In this document: piece by piece, positions 23,673-34,654 of the stretch | Layout of the letters: every line of letters starts with the position of its first letter | How positions within the stretch are numbered: the stretch's first letter is position 1 | Assembly (NCBI GenBank): GCA_047629275.1 | Contig: JBLHWR010000003.1 | Span: 1 to 41,877, forward strand | DNA length: 41,877 bases | DNA from: Gammaproteobacteria bacterium | GTDB lineage: Bacteria; Pseudomonadota; Gammaproteobacteria; GCA-001735895 | Reading direction: 5' to 3' | Notes under the pieces: model-generated | Told to the model about the DNA's origin: nothing | The model's input: only the letters and a program-made list of their open reading frames with translations | Databases searched by the model: none | Translations under genes and position numbers: made by a program

Positions 23673-24704
23673 TTAAGATTCCTGCTCAAGCTGAGAGACC
23701 GACTTAAGGCCACAAAAACAACATACGATTGTTTTTAAAAGAAGCCAGTCACGATCGGGGAAATCATCCTCTTGCTGACCTTTATTGATGCGGTCTAATG
23801 TAGCACAGCTTTGCAATAAACGCTCAAGTTGATCAAACTTCAAACGCTTTAAAGCCGACTCAAAAAGACGTTGTTTCGAACTCCAAATACGCAATTCCTG
23901 CCAGACTTTAGGGCTCATTCGACCCATATTTTGTGCCTGCTGCAAGGCCATCAATTGTTCGACTGCGGATTGTAACGACCACCGTAGTTGCACTGTAAGT
24001 TGTCCCTCATCCTTCAGGCTATCTAAAATTTTAATAGCACGTTGTACTTTCCCATCTAGACAAGCATCGACCAATACAAAATTGTTGTATCGAGAGCTTT
24101 GTGCAACAGTTTGTTCGACTTCATCAAAAGACACCGAGTTTCGATCGCAAAATCGAAGTGATAGCTTATCTAACTCTTGGTCAGCTGCCAGTAGGTTACC
24201 CTCGGTGCATTCCGCTAAAAAAACGGCTGATTGGCGATCAATAATGAGAGACTTAGCCCCTGCTCTTTGAACGATCCAGTCAACCAGCTGATGATTTCCT
24301 GGCGTTTTAAGCTCACTGACCTCACCAACTTGCTGTATGCGCTTGAACCAACTCGAGTTCTTAGTTGGCCGATCTAGTGATGGTATGACAAAAATGAAAA
24401 CCATGTCCTCAGGTAGTTGATCGCATATTGCTTGAATTGCTTTACTGCCTTGCTGACCTGGCTTCCCACTATTGATCATAATCACACGGCACTTCTTCAC
24501 CGAAAAAAGTGACAAAAGATGCGACTCTTCAATTAGGCTATTCCAGTCAAAACCTGATTCCGTAGTAACGGTTTGAATGTCTTCAAAGTCGTTTTTTCGT
24601 AAAGCTAGACGTGCTTGATCAAGCCAATCACGCACAAGCAAAGGTTCATTGCTTGATAGCAAATAGAGAGTCGATGGAATTTTGCTAAGACTTGCCGGTA
24701 ACAT
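23673..24704 (-). CDS. holA: DNA polymerase III delta subunit
   Basis: YLL.S.EPLL, SLFS, EGNLLAA.QE.DKL, D...KG; synteny with leuS/lptE/nadD. Confidence 0.9.
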   Translation of the reverse strand: MLPASLSKIPSTLYLLSSNEPLLVRDWLDQARLALRKNDFEDIQTVTTESGFDWNSLIEESHLLSLFSVKKCRVIMINSGKPGQQGSKAIQAICDQLPEDMVFIFVIPSLDRPTKNSSWFKRIQQVGEVSELKTPGNHQLVDWIVQRAGAKSLIIDRQSAVFLAECTEGNLLAADQELDKLSLRFCDRNSVSFDEVEQTVAQSSRYNNFVLVDACLDGKVQRAIKILDSLKDEGQLTVQLRWSLQSAVEQLMALQQAQNMGRMSPKVWQELRIWSSKQRLFESALKRLKFDQLERLLQSCATLDRINKGQQEDDFPDRDWLLLKTIVCCFCGLKSVSQLEQES

Positions 24705-24928
24705 GGTGCTATTTTAAGCCGAATTAGGATCAAAGCGCATGCTATATAACAACACCCAACTCTTCAACCTAGAAACATCTAGAAATGCCAGTTTCCGGTG
24801 ATTAATCGTTATAGACACGATAATACCAGTACAATTTACAATTCAGCATTGTGACAGGAATATAGATAGACAAAGCCATCGCAGCACATTTGTCTAAAAG
24901 ACTGTAACACTCCCTTAAATGTAGGCAT

Positions 24929-24962
24929 AAAAAAACCCTCATGCCGGGCAGACATGAGGGTT
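24929..24962 (-). terminator. Rho-independent terminator
   Basis: AACCCUCAUGU-CUGCCCG-GCAUGAGGGUU followed by a U run (7 U in total). Confidence 0.9.
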
Positions 24963-25069
24963 AAGAGACTACTGTATTATTCCATCTAACTGCATCCTGC
25001 TAGGCATCCGGCTCATGATACATTTAAGTATCTAATCCATATTTCCTTTGCTCAAATCCATATGAACAT
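24929..25069 (-). ncRNA. CsrB/RsmX/Y/Z-like CsrA-sequestering small RNA (~140 nt)
   Basis: Six GGA motifs in 79 nt (AUGGA x3, AAGGA, CAGGAUG, CCGGAUG), several in small hairpin loops; perfect TATAAT at 25081-25076; strong terminator; no ORF in the track. Confidence 0.78.
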
Positions 25070-25124
25070 ATTAACATTATAGCGACAAAAAATCGAATGG
25101 CTATAGCCTCTAACTAACAGGAAA

Positions 25125-25164
25125 CGTAAGAAAAATCGCTTTGTAAAGCAGGATTTATCCTACG
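25125..25164. promoter_or_regulatory. Candidate tandem GacA/UvrY-type boxes (imperfect 40-bp palindrome)
   Basis: CGTAAGAAAAATCGCTTT-GT-AAAGCAGGATTTATCCTACG; half-sites resemble TGTAAG-N6-CTTACA; about -56 to -95 from the predicted sRNA start. Confidence 0.45.
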
Positions 25165-26376
25165 TTATATTTCTCTAAGCCCATCTGACGGCTCAATTTT
25201 GGCTGCTCGAAAACCTCCCAGAATAGCAGCTAGTATGGCTGTTACCATAGTTAGTCCTAACGCCCAGAAGAAATGCTCAGATAACAAAAAACATAAGGTT
25301 TGATCAAGATTCAATCTTGGCGCTAAAAAACGGTTGATCAACTGTTCGAATACAAGATAGATCAGTACTGCACATAACCATCCCAATAATCCAGTGAGAC
25401 AAGATTGCACAAGAGGAAACAACACAACCCGACTGCTCCTAAATCCGAGCAATCTGAGTATACTCAATTCTTTCTTTTTGCGATCTACATTTGCCCACAG
25501 GCTTGCCCCTAAAGAAAAGGCAAAACCAACGGCCCCAACACAGGCGATAATCCAGAAAATGACCGATAGGTTTTGATCGATCGATTGCACCGTATAAATC
25601 TCAGCCGTGTTGGCCTTGACTCGAATGCCTTGCTTTTCAAGATCAGTTACCAGATGATTAACATCATAAATTGATTTTGCATACAACCGAAAAGATGGAT
25701 ATTGACGCGCCTCAAATTTCTCTGTGTCGCCTAACCAGCCAAGTTCAGGAACTGCTCGTCCATCTTTAAATTGCTCCGTTGCAAGAAGCAGATCCAGATT
25801 AACGAAGGCAATATTGCGACTACTAACAGCTGCTTCAGCTATTTCGATTACTTTCAGTGTCAAATGAACCCGTTCACGTTTGCCTTCGAATTGCCTTGCC
25901 AAACTGGCATCAATTAATTGGCCCTTTTTTGCCTTTAGCTTTATCGATGCTTCTTTGCTTAGAATAACTTCAAAATAACCTTTAGGAACACTACTTAATT
26001 CTTTTAATAACGGGTCACCCAGCGCTGTTGCCATCATTTCTGTTGAAAGAATATGATTGGCAGTTTTGCTTTTTAGCTGAATGGTAGCAGCCAACGCACG
26101 AGTTTTAGGAATGATAAATTCCACTTCTGGACGTAATCTAAATTGTTCAACCCACTGTTCACTATAATGCCCGCTGCTGATGGGGCGGATCTCTCGATTG
26201 ACTGGATTATCTACCAACCCCGATATCATTGAACTGACGATTCCAAATTTTAATCCAAACAATATCATCATCGGTGCGAGCACGGATGCAAGTGCAAATA
26301 CAAAGCAACCCGACATACGCCATTCGTGGCTATAGTCGCGGAAACTCAATCGGAGAATGTTATTAAGTTGGCTCAT
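25165..26376 (-). CDS. TagS-like ABC transporter permease (FtsX/MacB/LolE type)
   Basis: DY..E....C...AL..VLAP...LFGLKFG...DNP.NREI, RLYA.SI.DV, ANVDRKKKELS.LRLLG, IEPSDGLREI; recalled similarity to P. aeruginosa TagS. Confidence 0.82.
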   Translation of the reverse strand: MSQLNNILRLSFRDYSHEWRMSGCFVFALASVLAPMMILFGLKFGIVSSMISGLVDNPVNREIRPISSGHYSEQWVEQFRLRPEVEFIIPKTRALAATIQLKSKTANHILSTEMMATALGDPLLKELSSVPKGYFEVILSKEASIKLKAKKGQLIDASLARQFEGKRERVHLTLKVIEIAEAAVSSRNIAFVNLDLLLATEQFKDGRAVPELGWLGDTEKFEARQYPSFRLYAKSIYDVNHLVTDLEKQGIRVKANTAEIYTVQSIDQNLSVIFWIIACVGAVGFAFSLGASLWANVDRKKKELSILRLLGFRSSRVVLFPLVQSCLTGLLGWLCAVLIYLVFEQLINRFLAPRLNLDQTLCFLLSEHFFWALGLTMVTAILAAILGGFRAAKIEPSDGLREI

Positions 26377-26406
26377 AGTGATTAATTCAAAGTCCTAAGT
26401 TGAGCT

Positions 26407-27132
26407 CTAGTCTCGAAAAAGTGATTGGTAAACGCGACCATTCTCTACTACTCCCGCTTCTTGATAAAGCGTGCGTAAATCCATTTTATAAACATGTGCC
26501 CAGTCATGACTTGAGGTGATAAGGGTTATTTTAAGCCCTTTGATTAGCTCCATTACCACCGCCATAATCTTACGCGCAGTGATCGGGTCTAAGGCAGCGG
26601 TTGGTTCGTCGGCGAGTAGTATCGATGGCCGATGTGACAATGCTCGTGCGAAAGCGACTCTTTGCCTTTCACCGGCAGATAACAACCCTGGCAACTTATC
26701 GAGTTGGCGCTGGATACCCAGCACTTTTGAAATTGAATTAATCGAATCATCATCCGCTAGTTTCAACAGCCGGCGAGGCAGCTCGATGTTTTCACGCACG
26801 GTGAGATAAGGCAATAAACCGCCCGATTGCATTACGTACCCAATATTAAGACGTCGAATTTCGGAGAGTTGATCACGCTTTTTCTTTTGCCAAAGTTGGT
26901 CGATACTGTTTGTCTCTCCATCATTAGTTACAAGACTAAATTGTTTAGCATGATCAGGATGCAGTATCAGTGCAAGCATATCAAGCAGTGTGCTCTTACC
27001 ACAGCCACTGTGCCCTATGAGGGCTATGTTTTCACCTTTAGATATCTCTAGGTTTGGAACGAGTAATCGAAAACCAGCGTTCTCGATCATGCGTTCTTTT
27101 ACGACGTTTTTCAGACTATAGATGATTGACAC
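26407..27132 (-). CDS. TagT-like ABC transporter ATPase (LolD-like)
   Basis: Walker A GHSGCGKST, Q.GGLLPYLTVRENI, LSAGERQR, LADEPTAALDP, SHDW. Confidence 0.86.
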   Translation of the reverse strand: MSIIYSLKNVVKERMIENAGFRLLVPNLEISKGENIALIGHSGCGKSTLLDMLALILHPDHAKQFSLVTNDGETNSIDQLWQKKKRDQLSEIRRLNIGYVMQSGGLLPYLTVRENIELPRRLLKLADDDSINSISKVLGIQRQLDKLPGLLSAGERQRVAFARALSHRPSILLADEPTAALDPITARKIMAVVMELIKGLKITLITSSHDWAHVYKMDLRTLYQEAGVVENGRVYQSLFRD

Positions 27133-27197
27133 TTTGAATTAAAACTCGTTAGGTATTGTTTCTTAGTATGAAAGTTATTATGAAAGGCAATGAGAAA

Positions 27198-27232
27198 TAA
27201 AGAACATGGTGCTCATTACGACATGTTCTTTA
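27198..27232 (-). terminator. Intra-operon hairpin after the vWA gene
   Basis: TAAAGAACATG-N13-CATGTTCTTTA perfect 11-bp arms followed by TTTCT on the minus strand. Confidence 0.5.
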
Positions 27233-27254
27233 AGACATTTTTTTTGACAAAATA

Positions 27255-29216
27255 TCAAGGTAAAAGATCGAGCGACACTGGAAAGACAGAGTTTCCATTA
27301 ACAGGCCCTCCACCAGGTGTCACCCAAAGATCAGTATGGTCGTGCAATGCCTGATAGTAAGTGATTTTACTTTCCAATCGGTGCATAAATTCTATTTGCA
27401 CTTTGGCTGACCATGCTTCCCAACTTTCCAGCGTAAGGTTCATCACTTCACCGGTGTAAGGTAAGTCTTCAATATATTCACGCATATAACCCATATCAGC
27501 CAAATTCGCACCTGAACCCGATGTACTGCTAGCAACAGCTGATGGATCGAGGCTAACTGTCGCCGCTAAACTCTTTAAGTCTTCTATAAAGCTTTTAGGG
27601 CTAAGGACCCCCTCTTCGGCTAACTCTAAAACCTGCTGCATGACACTTTTTAAATCACTCAATTGATCTCTAGTAAGTAGCACACGAACATCGACTGTAG
27701 AACGCTCAGGATTTTCAAAATCTTTATCAATCATCCACGCATTAAATACCGTAGGCAATGGTTTACCTGATTCTTTTTGTAGATAACGCATGCGCAAGGC
27801 ATTGCCTAACTTTGCAACACGGTTTTGCAATTGGGATAGCTGAGAGGGTGTTTCATCAGCGTTAGCGTTAGCTTCAGTTTCATCATGCAACGGAAATGGT
27901 GGTACACCATTGGTCGTGGCAAGCACTTGTTGTGTTAGTTGATTGGCTAGCAACTCTAATACGGTGCCAAATTCATCCACTTCTGCGAGCCTAACGCCAT
28001 AATAAAAGTCACCGATACCAGGATAATAAGAAAGCTCTTTATAAAGTCTTTCTGTCTTTTCATGGTTTGCGACCGAAGACTGAGCACGCAAATGTAAAAC
28101 CCAAATCGAAACACCCTTGTCATAAGCCAACTGCCTTAAAGCTTGCGCGCTAAGACGGGTAGAGCCCAAAGAATCATGACTTTCTCGTGGCCCTGCATCA
28201 GTAATTAATATCACGTAACGGGCATCAAATTCATTCCAGTCAGTGCTTTCGATGGCTGACTTTATTCCTGCATAGGCGTCTTCTCTAAAGTCTCGGCTAG
28301 ACACCTCAGATGGACTAAGTTCATTGACATGGTTAAAGAATTGTTTAACGTCAGTACCTTGTTTAAGACTGACATAAGGCCGAACCAAATATTTTAATTC
28401 CGGTACCTGATCGATATTGTCTCGATAGGCCGTTAAACCAAAGCTCACTTGGTTGTTTAAGCCTTGCTTCTCTATTGCTGAATAAACTTTGGCAACCGCC
28501 TCACGAGTACGATCAATGTAAGGTCCCATCGACGCCGTGGAGTCAATCACAAAATGAATGCCGCTTCTATAACTTCGAGATTTCTGGCTAACTGCGATAG
28601 AATTCGCACGACTAGCCTCATCTTGCAGCGGTACACTGGCTATCTCGAGTAATCTGGCCTGCTCGTTTCCTAGATAAACATCTTCATGCTGCTTGATTGG
28701 CACAAGATAAAAATCTTGCAGGATGTCTATGTGCGCTTCTGGTTGAATGGCAATTACGGGGAAATCATCACCCACATCACCTTTAACTGCTGAATTATAG
28801 AGCGCCTGATAGGCCTCTTTATCGTAATCATTAACCAGCCGTTGTAAATTCTCTTTTTTATCAAACAGCATCACCCGTTGAGTATCCTGTGGGTCTTTAA
28901 ATGATACAGTCAACGCCTGATTCCAGATTATGGTTTTTGTCTGCTTAACCCAACCAGCCGTATCTCCAAAATTGCCATGACCTACCTTGATCCAGCCCTG
29001 TTTTTTTTGATAAACATAAAGAACACTAAATGGCACAATTTCGCTGGATGGCGCTGATTGCTCTGGTGACTCGTAAAGTCGAGCATCAGGCGTGCTAAGC
29101 ACTCGTTGATAGAGAGTTTTTTTGCCCTCCATTAGTAAAGGCAGTTCATTAGCCAGTGCAATATTGGTATGAAGAGAAACTAGTCCGACGAACAAAATTT
29201 TTATTAAATTTCTCAT
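27255..29216 (-). CDS. Secreted vWA-domain protein homologous to the periplasmic region of PpkA, without kinase domain
   Basis: Signal peptide ending IALA; PLLMEGKKTLYQRVLS, PFSVLYVYQ, MIDAS-like FVIDSTASMGPYI, AYRD, LITDAG, VLLTRDQLSDL, EY.EDLPY, V.LD.LP. Confidence 0.85.
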   Translation of the reverse strand: MRNLIKILFVGLVSLHTNIALANELPLLMEGKKTLYQRVLSTPDARLYESPEQSAPSSEIVPFSVLYVYQKKQGWIKVGHGNFGDTAGWVKQTKTIIWNQALTVSFKDPQDTQRVMLFDKKENLQRLVNDYDKEAYQALYNSAVKGDVGDDFPVIAIQPEAHIDILQDFYLVPIKQHEDVYLGNEQARLLEIASVPLQDEASRANSIAVSQKSRSYRSGIHFVIDSTASMGPYIDRTREAVAKVYSAIEKQGLNNQVSFGLTAYRDNIDQVPELKYLVRPYVSLKQGTDVKQFFNHVNELSPSEVSSRDFREDAYAGIKSAIESTDWNEFDARYVILITDAGPRESHDSLGSTRLSAQALRQLAYDKGVSIWVLHLRAQSSVANHEKTERLYKELSYYPGIGDFYYGVRLAEVDEFGTVLELLANQLTQQVLATTNGVPPFPLHDETEANANADETPSQLSQLQNRVAKLGNALRMRYLQKESGKPLPTVFNAWMIDKDFENPERSTVDVRVLLTRDQLSDLKSVMQQVLELAEEGVLSPKSFIEDLKSLAATVSLDPSAVASSTSGSGANLADMGYMREYIEDLPYTGEVMNLTLESWEAWSAKVQIEFMHRLESKITYYQALHDHTDLWVTPGGGPVNGNSVFPVSLDLLP

Positions 29217-29242
29217 TAAATCACCTTAATATCTGATGGCTA

Positions 29243-29875
29243 TTATTTTAAATTTAAGAGTAATTGGCGAGCAAAAGGATTGCCTGCTTTAGACTCGTCC
29301 AAAGCCCACTGCCGCAAGTTTTGTATGCTATCGATGGCAGGTTGGTAACCGGTCAACGCTGCTTTTTGATACCATTTATAGGATTGAACAGGGTCTGCCT
29401 GATCAAGTAAGCTAATGTCTGCTCGAAACTGAGTCGGATCAGACATGATTGCCATTTGCATAATTGAGTCGAGGTGACCTTCTCTGGCGCTAAAAAAATA
29501 AAGTAGGTGCGCGTCAGCCAAACTGCCTTCTTCCTGGTAAATTTTCGCTTGATTAAAAATCTCAGACAAGTCATATGACTTGCCGACCTTTCGAATTTTT
29601 TGTATTATTTTCCTCGCTGCCATGCCCGGTGGAGTGGGTAGATTACGATCTATGGCACCATTGTTTTCTAATGAAGTTGACGATGAAAACAACGATTGTT
29701 CGGATCCAACTACTTTTTGATCTTCAGCCGGCTCTAAACTACTCATGCCAGAGTCAGAGTGCTCAGAACCCAATCCATTAGGACCATTTCTGTCAGAACC
29801 AAAAAAGATAAACAATATTAATCCGGCAACGGCCAGTCCGGTCCAGAATAATGGGTTGCGCTGCGGTGCTGTCAA
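29243..29875 (-). CDS. Membrane-anchored SEL1-like repeat protein
   Basis: N-terminal TM FWTGLAVAGLILFIFFG, Ser-rich linker, A..GH..S...MA...DP and A...SYKWYQKAA..G...A. Confidence 0.75.
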   Translation of the reverse strand: MTAPQRNPLFWTGLAVAGLILFIFFGSDRNGPNGLGSEHSDSGMSSLEPAEDQKVVGSEQSLFSSSTSLENNGAIDRNLPTPPGMAARKIIQKIRKVGKSYDLSEIFNQAKIYQEEGSLADAHLLYFFSAREGHLDSIMQMAIMSDPTQFRADISLLDQADPVQSYKWYQKAALTGYQPAIDSIQNLRQWALDESKAGNPFARQLLLNLK

Positions 29876-30025: not shown

Positions 30026-30514
30026 TCACAATCTTTTCAGCTGAAAAATTAACTGACTAAACAATGTTTGATCTAATGTCCTTTCAGCACTCGTCTTCTC
30101 TAATTCAGTTCCCAGCAAATTATTACTGTCTTGCTCTATATTAATTTGACGCTCTATTATTTTTATCTGCAATAGTGAGACATCTTCTGACCTTTTTACG
30201 CTATAACTGAGCCGTTTAGAAATCTGTACAATTGTTGTACCCGTTCCTGCACTGTCGGCAAGGTTACGGTCAGACAAACTAGTCATTTTAACCTTGAGTT
30301 GCACTGGGTCATTGGCGTCACTTAGCTGTAACTTTGCACCCGCTTTGACAAGCATCTGACTTAGTAGTCTGATTTGATCCGCATTAAGGCCGTCATCAAC
30401 CAATTGTAATTGAGTCATCGTCTCAGGTAAGCTAGATACTCCGCGTAGCTGAAAACCACAGGCAGAAACGAAGCCAACTAAGATCAGTATTGCAATAAAC
30501 TGAAGTTTTTTCAT
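30026..30514 (-). CDS. lptE: LPS assembly lipoprotein LptE
   Basis: Lipobox VSACGFQLRG; directly after leuS. Confidence 0.9.
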   Translation of the reverse strand: MKKLQFIAILILVGFVSACGFQLRGVSSLPETMTQLQLVDDGLNADQIRLLSQMLVKAGAKLQLSDANDPVQLKVKMTSLSDRNLADSAGTGTTIVQISKRLSYSVKRSEDVSLLQIKIIERQINIEQDSNNLLGTELEKTSAERTLDQTLFSQLIFQLKRL

Positions 30515-30539: not shown

Positions 30540-33005
30540 TCATATCACTATATTGACTAGTTTATTCGGTACAACTATCACTTTTCTAATGGCTTGGTCT
30601 CCAATGAACTTTCTAATTTGCTCATTGCCAACTGCCATCGCTTCACAACTGACTTTATCGGTGTCAGCGCTAACTTGAATTTTGGCACGAAGCTTACCAT
30701 TCACCTGAACCACCATTTCAATGCTTTCCTGGACCAGTGCTGTCTCATCTAGCTGTGGCCAGACTGCATCGAGGATAATGTCCTCATGTCCTAGCTCTTG
30801 CCATAGTTGATGGCATAAGTGTGGGATAATCGGGGCCAGCATCAATACCATATTATCATAAACTTCCTGTTTAATGTTATGGCCTATTAACGAGTCATCG
30901 TTAAATTTAACCACTGTATTAAGAAGCTCCATATTGGCAGCAATTGCGGTATTGAATGTCAATCGACGGCCATAGTCATCGCTGACTTTTTTTATAGTTT
31001 CGTGCAGTTTATACCGCATAGCCTTCTGAGCTTCGTTCAAGTCGGCACTTACCATCTTAATTAACTCTGCTTTATGTTCAGTGTGCTCGTAAATACCAGC
31101 CCATAAACGCTTTAAGAATCGGTGCGCACCTTCTACGCCAGCATCGGCCCATTCTAAAGATTGCTCAGGGGGTGCGGCGAACATGATAAACAAGCGCACT
31201 GTATCCGCACCAAATCGGTCAATTAATGCCTGTGGATCAACCGTATTTCCTTTCGACTTAGACATTTTACTGCCATCTTTTAATACCATGCCTTGTGTTA
31301 GTAATCGTTTAAAAGGCTCGTCCGAGTTGATTAATCCTTCGTCGCGCATCAACTTGTGGTAAAAACGAGCGTATAACAAATGTAGAATAGCGTGTTCGAT
31401 ACCGCCGATATAATAGTCAACCGGTGCCCAGTAATCAGCGCGAGCGTCGAGCATAGTTTGATCTTGACCAGGACAGGCATAGCGACTGTAATACCAAGAC
31501 GACTCCATAAAGGTATCAAAGGTATCAGTTTCACGCTCAGCAGGTTTTCCGCAACGAGGACAGGTTGTTTTTTTGAAGGAGTCCATCGATTTGATCGGTG
31601 ACCCTATACCCTGGAATTCGATATCTTCCGGTAACACGACTGGTAAATCTTTCTCTGGCACTGGTACGGGGCCGCAATCATTGCAGTTGATAATGGGTAT
31701 CGGTGTACCCCAGTAACGTTGGCGGGAGACGCCCCAGTCACGCAGTCGAAAGTTAACCTGACGCTTTCCTTTATTTTGTTGTTCTAGCTGATCGGCAATT
31801 TTATCAAATGCGGCTTTAAAATCGAGCCCGTCTAATTCACCCGAATTGCAGCAAACGCCTTCTTTGGTAATAAATGCTTCATGCTCAAGATCTACTTCAG
31901 CACTACCGGTTGACGTTCCATCGATAGGTGCAATGACTTGTTTGATTTCAATATTATATTTTCGAGCAAATTCCCAATCACGTTGATCGTGTGCGGGCAC
32001 AGACATAATCGCACCCGTGCCATAACCCATGAGCACAAAATTGGCGATCCATATCGGCATGGAGTCACCATTAACGGGATTAATCGCAATAATATCGAGA
32101 GCAATACCACGCTTTTCCATTTTTTCAAGTGCAGCTTCCGCTGTGTTGGTTGTTTTGCAATCAATGACAAACTCAGCAATATCAGCGTTTGTCTCAGCAG
32201 CTTTTAACGCCAACGGGTGCTCCGCTGCAATGGCCATGAAAGTCGCACCATGTAGAGTATCGGGCCGCGTGGTGTAAACGCTTAGCGCCTCGTGACCTGG
32301 CACCTCAAATTCAATTTCCATGCCTTCAGATCGACCAATCCAATTTCGTTGCATGGTCTTGACTTGTTCCGGCCAATCAACCGTATCCAAATCATCCAGA
32401 AGTTGGTCTGCATAATCAGTTATTTTTAAAAACCATTGCGATAGTTCGCGTCGCTCTACGGGCGTATCACAACGCCAGCAGCATCCATCAACTACCTGCT
32501 CATTAGCGAGTACAGTTTGGTCATGCGGACACCAATTGACTGGTGCCGTTTTTTTATAAGCGATACCTTTTTCCATTAGCCGTGTAAAAAACCATTGCTC
32601 CCAACGATAGTAGTCTGGCTTACAAGTCGCTAGCTCACGACTCCAGTCATAACCGAATCCAAGTCGCTTTAACTGGCTGCGCATGTAATCAATATTTTCG
32701 TAAGTCCACTTTGCCGGTGGAACATTGTTTTTTATCGCTGCGTTTTCTGCGGGTAGACCAAACGCATCCCAACCCATGGGTTGTAATACATTTTTTCCTA
32801 ACATGCGTTGGTAGCGAGAAATGACATCGCCTATGGTGTAGTTGCGGACATGCCCCATGTGGAGCTTTCCACTCGGATAGGGAAACATCGACAAGCAGTA
32901 GTAACTTTCTTTAGCAGGGTCTTCGTGCACTTCGAACTGACCTTCGTCAGACCATAATTTTTGAGCCTTTGCTTCGAGTAACTTGGGGTCGTATTGCTGA
33001 TCCAT
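30540..33005 (-). CDS. leuS: Leucine--tRNA ligase
   Basis: [13 protein letters not shown], editing-domain [20 protein letters not shown]. Confidence 0.98.
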
Positions 33006-33100: not shown

Positions 33101-34654
33101 CTATATAGCGGTTTTTTCATGACGCGTTTTAAACCAACCGGCCGACAGAATGATCAATATTAAACCCGCAATCCAACCCTGTACTTTAGCAAAGTAATAG
33201 AAGGGCGTTATGCCAGTTCGACCGTTCATTGTTTGGGTTATTGATAGAGTTTTGAATTGCTCTGTCTGCTGGATAATTCGGCCCTTGAAATCGATAAATG
33301 CACTGACACCCGTGTTGGTTGATCGCACCATCGCCCTGCCCGTTTCAAGCGATCTCATTTGTGCCATTTGTAGATGTTGATGTGGCGCCAGTGAATCACC
33401 AAACCAGGCATCATTACTGGCATTCACCAAAAGGTTAGCCTGTGGGATCGACAACATAATGTCGCGGCTAAAAGCGTCTTCAAAACAAATAGAAATGCCT
33501 AAAAACAAGCCTTTCACCTTCATTAATGGTTGCTCGTCTGGGCCTGGCTGGAGATCAGAATATGGGATATTGATCAACTGACTCATCAAGTCCAGTAACC
33601 AGCGCATGGGATAGTATTCGCCAAACAAAACTAGGTGGCGTTTGTGATAAACCCCTTCATTTTCGCCCAAGTCGCCTCCCAAAATCATCATACTATTATG
33701 GAATTTTCGGTTGGCCTTGTCCGACATCAGCAGCCCTGTCAGGATATAACTATCTTTCGCTGCCGCTTCTTTTGAAAGGAAACTTAGAGTGTTTTGCTTA
33801 ACATTTTCAAATTGACCTGGAAGGGCCGTCTCTGGCCAGACTATGAGGTCACTGTTCCAATGTTTGTCTGTTTCATTCCAATAGGTATTGAAAATATTCT
33901 GGCGTTGAGCGGATTGCCACTTCATTTCCTGAGGTATGTTGCCCTGCACTATCGTGACATCGAGGGATTTTGACTGTTGCTCGGTCCATTCTACATGCTG
34001 CAAGCCAGAGCCAAGCGAATACACCAGCAACAGCACGACAAGAGAAACCAAACGATACGATTTGTAGTGAACCAGCTGGATCAAAGCGACCGAGACCAAT
34101 ATACCGATGGCGCTCAAACCGTAAACGCCGATTAATGGCGCGAATCCTGCCAGCGGGGATTCACCCAATGCAAAACCTAGACTTAACCAAGGCATACCCG
34201 TTAAGAACCAGCCACGAAACCATTCGAAGGCGAACCAAAGGATGGGCACTAACCAGATCGACTGATGACCTATTCTACGTTGTATCGATTGCCAAGAGAG
34301 CAGTGTTAACGCTGGGAAAACAGACAGCGTTACGACCATCAATGCAGTAATGGCGCCTGCGACAATAGGTGGTGCCATTCCAAAGTCATGCAGGCTGTTA
34401 TATATCCAATAAACGCCAAAACCAAAGTAGCCTAAACCGAAACCAAATCCAGTCAGAAATACCTGCTTATTGGTATCCCTCGAGTTGGCCAACACAAGCA
34501 AAACTGCGGGCAAGATAATGACCAAAGGCCAAATTGCAAAAGGGGCAAAGGCCAATGGCAAAAAAGCGCCCAGTAAGACACAAAACAAGAGCAACAATGG
34601 AAAAGGCAGACTCGTCAGAAAAACAGACAATCGGGTGCTAGCTACGGTCATCAA
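33101..34654 (-). CDS. lnt: Apolipoprotein N-acyltransferase
   Basis: QGNIPQ, VWPETA, YHKRHLVLFGEY, ICFE, NDAWFG, RSTNTGVS. Confidence 0.95.
   Translation of the reverse strand: MMTVASTRLSVFLTSLPFPLLLLFCVLLGAFLPLAFAPFAIWPLVIILPAVLLVLANSRDTNKQVFLTGFGFGLGYFGFGVYWIYNSLHDFGMAPPIVAGAITALMVVTLSVFPALTLLSWQSIQRRIGHQSIWLVPILWFAFEWFRGWFLTGMPWLSLGFALGESPLAGFAPLIGVYGLSAIGILVSVALIQLVHYKSYRLVSLVVLLLVYSLGSGLQHVEWTEQQSKSLDVTIVQGNIPQEMKWQSAQRQNIFNTYWNETDKHWNSDLIVWPETALPGQFENVKQNTLSFLSKEAAAKDSYILTGLLMSDKANRKFHNSMMILGGDLGENEGVYHKRHLVLFGEYYPMRWLLDLMSQLINIPYSDLQPGPDEQPLMKVKGLFLGISICFEDAFSRDIMLSIPQANLLVNASNDAWFGDSLAPHQHLQMAQMRSLETGRAMVRSTNTGVSAFIDFKGRIIQQTEQFKTLSITQTMNGRTGITPFYYFAKVQGWIAGLILIILSAGWFKTRHEKTAI

Follow-up and report, generated by a model that had tools for sequence, protein, structure and literature searches.

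In the H1 type VI secretion system (T6SS) of Pseudomonas aeruginosa, the TagQRST-PpkA pathway responds to perturbation of the envelope, for example by polymyxin B, and its TagST part is an inner-membrane ABC complex with ATPase activity, according to PMC5532429; TagR is described as acting on the C-terminal domain of PpkA in PMC3224232. A comparable set of genes, comprising a Lol-like ABC pair, a vWA protein and a SUMF1/FGE enzyme, has been noted as an accessory cassette of srfABC loci in PMC3608642 and in the preprint 10.64898/2026.09.18.752743. Here we analyse a four-gene cassette of this kind in a Gammaproteobacteria bacterium, on contig JBLHWR010000003.1 (41,877 nt, hereafter the window; contig C3 of genome G000). 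The source is a metagenome-assembled genome (GCA_047629275.1) of 2.1 Mb in 175 contigs, 68.9% complete. Four co-oriented genes located between lptE and holA encode a small putative membrane protein with a Sel1-like domain (p210), a predicted secreted vWA protein, an ABC ATPase of the TagT type and an FtsX-type permease of the TagS type.

The four genes probably constitute an old, self-contained operon (we put this at roughly 60%), that is, a kinase-less and srf-less TagT/TagS/PpkA-ectodomain module which would work by the mechanotransduction typical of type VII ABC systems. We regard the standalone four-gene form as a variant of the known TagTS/PpkA-type system, and literature searches covering sources other than subscription journals found no paper on it. 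The Sel1-likeness of p210 and its predicted clasp on the vWA protein are new in this analysis, as is the occurrence of p210-like genes ahead of the free vWA genes in srfABC loci.

Homology to the TagTS/PpkA pathway

Twenty loci from other families were fetched for comparison. One of these, L046, is a genuine T6SS threonine-phosphorylation locus with the order tssM-tagF-pppA-ppkA-tagT-tagS-tagR (domains TssM, TagF_N, PP2C, Pkinase, ABC, FtsX and FGE-sulfatase), and its PpkA-type protein of 992 amino acids has the Pkinase domain at 8-249. Residues 22-653 of the window vWA protein align with the non-kinase part of this PpkA at 32% identity (E 9e-103), and the reverse search with the L046 ectodomain against the source genome returns the window vWA protein (E 9e-105). 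The window ABC protein is 42% identical to the L046 TagT and the window FtsX protein 37% identical to TagS. When the L046 proteins are searched against the source genome, the window ABC protein is the best match of the TagT-like protein (E 9e-46; the next match has 1e-22) and the window FtsX protein is the only match of the TagS-like one. These reciprocal best or only matches bear out the initial annotation, which had proposed homologues of TagT, TagS and the PpkA ectodomain; judged by sequence, the designation is correct as homology, not as pathway membership.

The same annotation had seen no kinase, tagR or srf gene in the window, and model searches of contig C3 agree: there was no match to VipB, Pkinase, FHA, FGE-sulfatase or SrfB, with PP2C and TagQ outside the set of models searched. 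The only Pkinase match in the genome is on contig C6. The only FGE-sulfatase match is on contig C124 (L057:3955-5997), in a protein which also has DinB_2 and methyltransferase domains. This architecture is that of the ovothiol synthase OvoA, and the protein is not a TagR.

The vWA protein (653 amino acids) starts with a signal-peptide-like segment, matches Pfam VWA with 28.2 bits (cut-off 23.8) and has no Pkinase domain match. It is composed of a beta-rich N-domain (~30-200), the vWA domain (~218-410) and a helical C-domain (~413-653). The motif of the metal-ion-dependent adhesion site (MIDAS) type reads DxTxS (D225-x-T227-x-S229). In 31 sequences from the standalone, srf and T6SS contexts, D225, S229 and D340 never vary, and conservation of T227 is at least 90%. 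An AlphaFold2 model with a predicted local distance difference test (pLDDT) of 74 matches integrin I-domain folds (E ~1e-7, target-normalised TM-score ~0.7). By fold and motif, the protein thus qualifies as a vWA/MIDAS-domain protein with a predicted metal site. Its relatives number thousands, many of them automatically named 'PpkA'; a sequence search of the PDB gave nothing meaningful, with a single match at E 0.65.

A predicted membrane tether for the vWA protein

The p210 protein has a short, positively charged N-terminus, a transmembrane (TM) helix at ~8-26, an acidic disordered linker and a helical-repeat domain at 80-210 (~130 amino acids). The charge distribution suggests a bitopic protein with a periplasmic repeat domain, and the alignment of 21 homologues leaves only ~7-30 residues on the cytoplasmic side. 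Pfam Sel1 matches the window p210 weakly (13.9 bits, under the cut-off of 30.7), and is found at E<=1 in 16 of the 21 homologues, at best with 3.4e-5. The AlphaFold2 model (pLDDT 84) has Sel1-repeat proteins as its top Foldseek hits, with probability 1.0 but weak E values of at least 0.018. The family has at least 222 clusters at 50% identity (E<=1e-30), and most members have 170-300 amino acids.

Complex prediction with p210 (78-210) and the mature vWA protein (23-653) scored 0.64, against 0.00 for the best of three controls. In a calibration, 58 of 80 solved complexes attained the mark for this score, as did 2 of 110 mismatched pairs; these counts hold only roughly for the present prediction, which used author-built alignments. 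The runs agree in at least 88% of the contacts, and partner pLDDT is at least 85. In the predicted interface, the concave face of p210 packs against vWA residues 534-541 and 603-627 of the C-terminal helical domain; the predicted contacts on the p210 side include R88, L124, F127, R131, D161, Q164 and K167. Of the 22 residues that p210 contributes, 10 are either invariant or conserved to at least 90%, as compared with 17 of 111 other positions of the domain. We therefore propose that p210 holds the vWA protein by its C-terminal helical domain, a prediction that backs binding rather than showing it.

In all four assessable srf-type loci (L041, L043, L044 and L151), a profile of the p210 domain matches the open reading frame (ORF) that immediately precedes the free vWA gene, and these p210-like copies have a longer N-terminal, cytoplasmic part (349 to ~520 amino acids). 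The profile also matches the gene upstream of vWA in locus L047, a distant relative of the cassette. No match was found in the kinase-fused T6SS locus L046. Occurrence of the domain with free vWA proteins, and its absence from the kinase-fused locus, fits a role as an anchor for ectodomains that have no TM segment of their own, within this small sample. Separately, a TagR-like FGE protein of L047 (L047:4524-6173, genome G136) carries a C-terminal Sel1 domain of the p210 type (profile search, E 1.2e-14), an arrangement seen only in L047; the Sel1 domain may serve generally to dock onto the ectodomain. No similarity emerged when p210 was compared by BLASTP with three TagR-like FGE proteins.

Distribution and conservation of the cassette

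All ten loci fetched from the genus have the identical order leuS-lptE-p210-vWA-ABC-FtsX-holA-proA-nadD. Among 19 named loci of the same lineage, lptE precedes p210 in 12 and holA follows FtsX in 11, the others being cut by contig ends. A clear vWA orthologue is present in 53 of 60 genus genomes. Five of the seven genomes with no vWA match were checked (all except G440 and G445), and each proved to be an assembly break at the locus: holA is at a contig end in G436, G437 and G001, FtsX lies beside holA in G452, and G429 retains p210 and the first 104 vWA residues. No intact lptE-holA junction devoid of the cassette was seen among the checked genus genomes. Within the genus, identity to the window proteins is 74-77% for vWA, 73-77% for ABC, 69-74% for FtsX and 42-54% for p210; the neighbours leuS, holA and lptE have 69-81%, 53-59% and 25-43%, respectively.

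In other lineages, p210, vWA, ABC and FtsX follow in this order in 53 of 58 loci. Within 8 kb, none of the 58 has lptE, holA or leuS, none has SrfA, SrfB or SrfC (tblastn) or FGE, and none has a kinase, FHA or PP2C-type match (with a PpkA kinase-domain query). The survey of neighbours found no conserved flanking gene in these loci; the commonest, in up to 10 loci each, are a HAD hydrolase, an NMT1-like binding protein, metH, a GGDEF-EAL protein and endonuclease I. Some of the named loci repeat genomes already fetched (for example L077, L084, L106 and L133), and the sets are not independent. The lptE-holA site is a trait of one genus and holds no functional clue, so the earlier suggestion that a place beside lnt and lptE hints at function does not stand.

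Record titles of the other-lineage carriers include Candidatus Thiodiazotropha, Sedimenticolaceae, Chromatiales, Methylococcales, Woeseiaceae and others; by these titles, the standalone form is found widely among uncultured and symbiotic Gammaproteobacteria, namely sulfur oxidisers, methanotrophs and sediment bacteria. As a side observation, lptE-cassette-holA contigs filed under Flavobacteriia names (Urechidicola sp. and Polaribacter sp.; locus L074 and proteins P0015 and P0017) suggest mis-binning.

When 31 ectodomains were placed in a quick maximum-likelihood tree, the four-gene type formed one clade of 21 rows with a Shimodaira-Hasegawa-like approximate likelihood ratio test (SH-aLRT) value of 100, within which the genus is nested. 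The srf rows form a clade of their own (97), as do the T6SS rows L045 and L046 (100).

Independence from T6SS and from a kinase in cis

The cassette had been called one without T6SS, which holds for the window and fails for the genome: contig C72 carries tssA, tssB, tssC, hcp, tssJ, tssK and tssL, and contig C103 carries tssM, a fused tssB-tssC, hcp, tssE and tssF. The fusion (L056:3364-5064) is a single 566-residue protein that joins VipA (TssB) and VipB (TssC) domains into one sheath subunit. Across genomes, the cassette and T6SS are distributed separately. TssC was found in 15 of the 60 genus genomes; in the 28 of high quality (at least 90% complete, at most 5% contaminated), the cassette is present in 27 and TssC in 8, and 19 have the cassette and no TssC. 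In a sample of 400 Gammaproteobacteria, a full-length vWA orthologue (at least 49% identity) occurs in 19 genomes, inside or outside the genus, TssC being absent from 13 and present in 6; the background of TssC is 88 of 400. The carriers include the unpublished G063 (leaving it out gives 18 carriers, 12 with no TssC), the background count includes the unpublished G286, and G243 was unscored in the searches of this sample for vWA, SrfB and TssC. The cassette is thus statistically independent of T6SS, and most of its carriers, 19 of 27 among the high-quality congeners and 13 of 19 in the class sample, have the same unit in a TssC-negative genome.

These data bear on the possibility that the cassette is a sensor half split off from a T6SS or Ser/Thr-kinase pathway, signalling in trans to a Hanks kinase that controls T6SS or an FHA-dependent process. 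The closest characterised relative is a kinase sensor, the source genome has its two tss clusters, and the four near-complete genus genomes searched (G012, G014, G023 and G152; see for example L068-L071) have 9-14 Pkinase matches each and many FHA proteins, including a conserved pair of a ~890-residue kinase and a ~250-residue FHA protein. This pair is also found in genus genomes with no T6SS. Against such signalling stand the TssC-negative majority of carriers, the 58 other-lineage loci with no kinase, FHA or PP2C-type match nearby, and the short cytoplasmic part of p210. Nor did a split H1-type T6SS come to light elsewhere: the sheath contigs of G000, G012 and G014, which are short, had no Pkinase or FHA match. 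We consider a trans-acting kinase pathway unlikely, and favour the self-contained operon.

The ABC ATPase and the FtsX-type permease

The ATPase has intact Walker A, signature, Walker B (with D-E) and H-loop motifs, and the permease has the layout of a first TM helix, a ~225-residue periplasmic domain and three C-terminal TM helices. A true MacB/Lol-like exporter or extractor of a lipid, lipoprotein or peptide, in which the vWA protein and p210 would serve as adaptors in the periplasm or receive the substrate, would account for several of their features. Exporter ATPases (bacteriocin export, LolD and DevA; ~1e-36) head the NCBIfam matches of the ATPase, the closest solved chains of the permease are LolF (E 6e-5) and LolC, and the preprint 10.64898/2026.09.18.752743 regards the srf-linked pair as a specialised module akin to Lol. 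However, ATPase and permease all score far under the curated family cut-offs, the unit holds no lipoprotein, membrane-fusion or outer-membrane channel gene, nor is one conserved beside it, and elsewhere in the source genome (contig C8, 500 bits) there is a canonical lolCE gene of the single-permease type beside an ATPase gene. The similarity to the solved permeases covers the TM region only, and no match between the periplasmic domain and solved ones could be detected by sequence. A transporter in this strict sense appears improbable, and an operon built on type VII ABC mechanics remains our preferred reading.

The srf-type loci, fetched at 34-37% vWA identity, read srfA-like, SrfB, SrfC, small ORF, vWA, ABC, FtsX and FGE, in line with the earlier statement that similar genes accompany srfABC. 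Their shared order of Sel1-like repeat (SLR) protein, vWA, ABC and FtsX, plus FGE, could mean that the window cassette is an accessory part left behind after loss of srfABC. This is very unlikely, as the four-gene type is a separate, well-supported clade, its sequence is strongly conserved in the genus, SrfB (PF07520) is found in none of five genus genomes and none of the 19 class-sample carriers by a search that is sound (7 of 400 genomes above the cut-off), and the at least 222 clusters of the p210 type fit a decaying remnant poorly.

That the cassette is the housekeeping lipoprotein-release (Lol) transporter of the lineage, as its place beside lnt, leuS and lptE and its housekeeping-like conservation might suggest, can be dismissed unless the C8 gene proves not to be Lol, because each of five genus genomes has a separate lolCE-type gene (491-514 bits on TIGR02212, cut-off 362; the cassette permease has 30.7-32) and the unit lies away from lnt and lptE in other lineages.

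Proposed function

For the self-contained operon, the following mechanism can be drawn up from homology, models and analogy. The TagT-like ATPase and the TagS-like FtsX permease would form an inner-membrane type VII ABC machine, and the secreted vWA protein would represent the whole periplasmic half of PpkA, with its beta, MIDAS-bearing vWA and helical domains. Through its Sel1-like domain, p210 is predicted to grip the helical C-domain and so to hold the vWA protein at the inner membrane. ATP hydrolysis in the cytoplasm may move the periplasmic domain of the permease, by analogy with FtsEX-EnvC, MacB and LolCDE, and these movements may be received or gated by the tethered vWA protein, whose metal-dependent site would bind an envelope ligand. 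With no kinase or other cytoplasmic signalling domain in cis, the output would be periplasmic work or envelope surveillance rather than threonine phosphorylation; T6SS and SrfABC would use related copies of the module as a sensor or an accessory part. The link from the cassette to envelope stress is drawn from the published work on TagQRST-PpkA (PMC5532429 and PMC3224232). A role in 'sensing or export', as the initial annotation put it, is one that we likewise infer.

Several points weigh against this reading. The mechanotransmission is proposed solely from the example of FtsEX, MacB and Lol, and the likeness to Lol permeases is confined to the TM region. The source genome itself has T6SS genes, in two partial tss clusters, and the unusual abundance of Hanks kinases and FHA proteins in the genus makes a kinase in trans possible. 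The unit is incomplete or rearranged in 5 of the 58 other-lineage loci: L109 and L133 have no adjacent ABC/FtsX pair, the pair is inverted in L132, L145 has no p210 match and L130 is cut by a contig end. The tree that separates the clades is the quick version. Finally, the vWA residues that p210 is predicted to touch fall outside the columns conserved in all three contexts.

A broader reading, possible though doubtful in our estimate, is that the TagTS/PpkA-ectodomain/Sel1 unit was ancestrally a complete periplasmic machine with its own task in the maintenance of the envelope, which was tapped later as a damage sensor by T6SS through kinase fusion and by SrfABC through a cytoplasmic extension of the Sel1 protein. 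The kinase-less operon would then perform the primary function, and be near-indispensable in this lineage; this, if true, would explain why the cassette is kept as strictly as leuS. Its job might be an ATP-powered, metal-dependent probing or repair of the interface between outer membrane and periplasm.

To our knowledge, nobody can say what the TagTS ABC pair does in the sensing of envelope damage in Pseudomonas. The cassette offers a natural minimal form, consisting of the ABC pair, the ectodomain and a putative tether, in which the periplasmic core is separated from the signalling layer, and may reveal the role of this sensor core alone. Since it occurs without T6SS and is conserved like a tRNA synthetase in one genus, the core function should be testable without T6SS read-outs, and the predicted contact between the Sel1 and helical domains provides a concrete starting point for experiment.

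Genomic setting and intergenic elements

The minus-strand order in the window is lnt, leuS, lptE, p210, vWA, ABC, FtsX, holA, proA and nadD (Table 1). The gaps p210-vWA, vWA-ABC and ABC-FtsX are 26, 122 and 30 nt, respectively; lptE is separated from p210 by 150 nt and FtsX from holA by 460 nt. The 162-residue lipoprotein upstream has no Pfam match of its own. A profile from 11 of its orthologues matches solved LptE chains (8h1r_B, E 1.5e-14), and this match confirms, at the level of sequence, that the gene is lptE. With holA recognised by its NCBIfam model, the gene order upholds the initial claim that four co-oriented genes split lptE and holA. The two are usually adjacent, with the order leuS-lptE-holA-nadD in Escherichia coli.

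Table 1. Coordinates of the cassette genes and flanking genes in the window.
Feature	Position	Strand	Evidence
lnt	33101-34654	minus	window gene calls
leuS	30540-33005	minus	window gene calls
lptE, 162-aa lipoprotein, upstream flank	30026-30514	minus	lipobox in sequence; profile match to solved LptE
p210, putative bitopic inner-membrane Sel1-like protein	29243-29875	minus	ORF, homologue alignment, AlphaFold2 model
vWA protein, 653 aa, predicted secreted	27255-29216	minus	Pfam VWA, PpkA-ectodomain homology
ABC ATPase, TagT type	26407-27132	minus	Pfam ABC_tran E 9e-28; TagT homology
FtsX/MacB/Lol-type (type VII ABC) permease, TagS type	25165-26376	minus	Pfam FtsX E 3.7e-9; TagS homology
holA, downstream flank	23673-24704	minus	NCBIfam TIGR01128 E 4.2e-66

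The stretch between FtsX and holA contains two elements of note. One is a candidate small RNA (~150 nt) at 24922-25077 on the minus strand. A -10-like TATAAT box at 25081-25076 precedes a core that is conserved across 10 of 11 genus loci, and a stem-loop with a T-run comes next, at 24962-24934. RNAalifold gives a consensus of 34 pairs, with compensatory changes in 18; Rfam at the gathering threshold gave no match on the window or on L058, L063 and L067. Just past the FtsX stop, at ~25125-25145 on the minus strand, the aligned genus loci share a conserved palindrome, TGTAGGA-n3/4-TCCTACA, with an A-run after it. The window copy is imperfect, and the palindrome may be an operator or a hairpin.

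Comparison with known systems

Compared with the H1-T6SS pathway TagQRST-PpkA, which works with Fha1 and PppA, the cassette has an ABC/FtsX pair homologous to TagT and TagS and a vWA protein that matches the PpkA ectodomain over its full length and keeps the MIDAS-type residues. It differs in that the ectodomain is free and apparently secreted, with neither a Hanks kinase domain nor a TM fusion, and in the extra Sel1-like membrane protein; there is no FGE-sulfatase/TagR, PppA, Fha or TagF near the cassette, which is found mostly in genomes without TssC.

The accessory cassette of srfABC has the same order of Sel1-domain membrane protein, vWA, ABC and FtsX, at identities to the window proteins of 34-37% (vWA), 43-50% (ABC) and 30-37% (FtsX). 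In contrast, the window unit has no SrfA, SrfB, SrfC (PF10139) or FGE gene, its p210 lacks the long cytoplasmic N-terminal part of the srf-type copies, and it belongs to a separate clade.

TssR, the vWA protein of the Bacteroidota T6SS(iii), gives a lead only: TssR clusters are among the feature-based look-alikes of the window vWA protein in the ESM Atlas (score 0.96), and a distant relative at L048:8545-10878 matches PF20782 TssR_VWA (E 2.8e-4). PpkA ectodomains and TssR may have a deep link.

With the type VII ABC systems FtsEX-EnvC, MacAB, LolCDE/LolDF and BceAB, the cassette shares a four-TM FtsX-type permease with a large periplasmic domain and a separate ATPase. It is set apart from them by scores under every curated family cut-off and by its partners, a vWA protein and a putative Sel1 tether, which are unlike EnvC, MacA and LolA.

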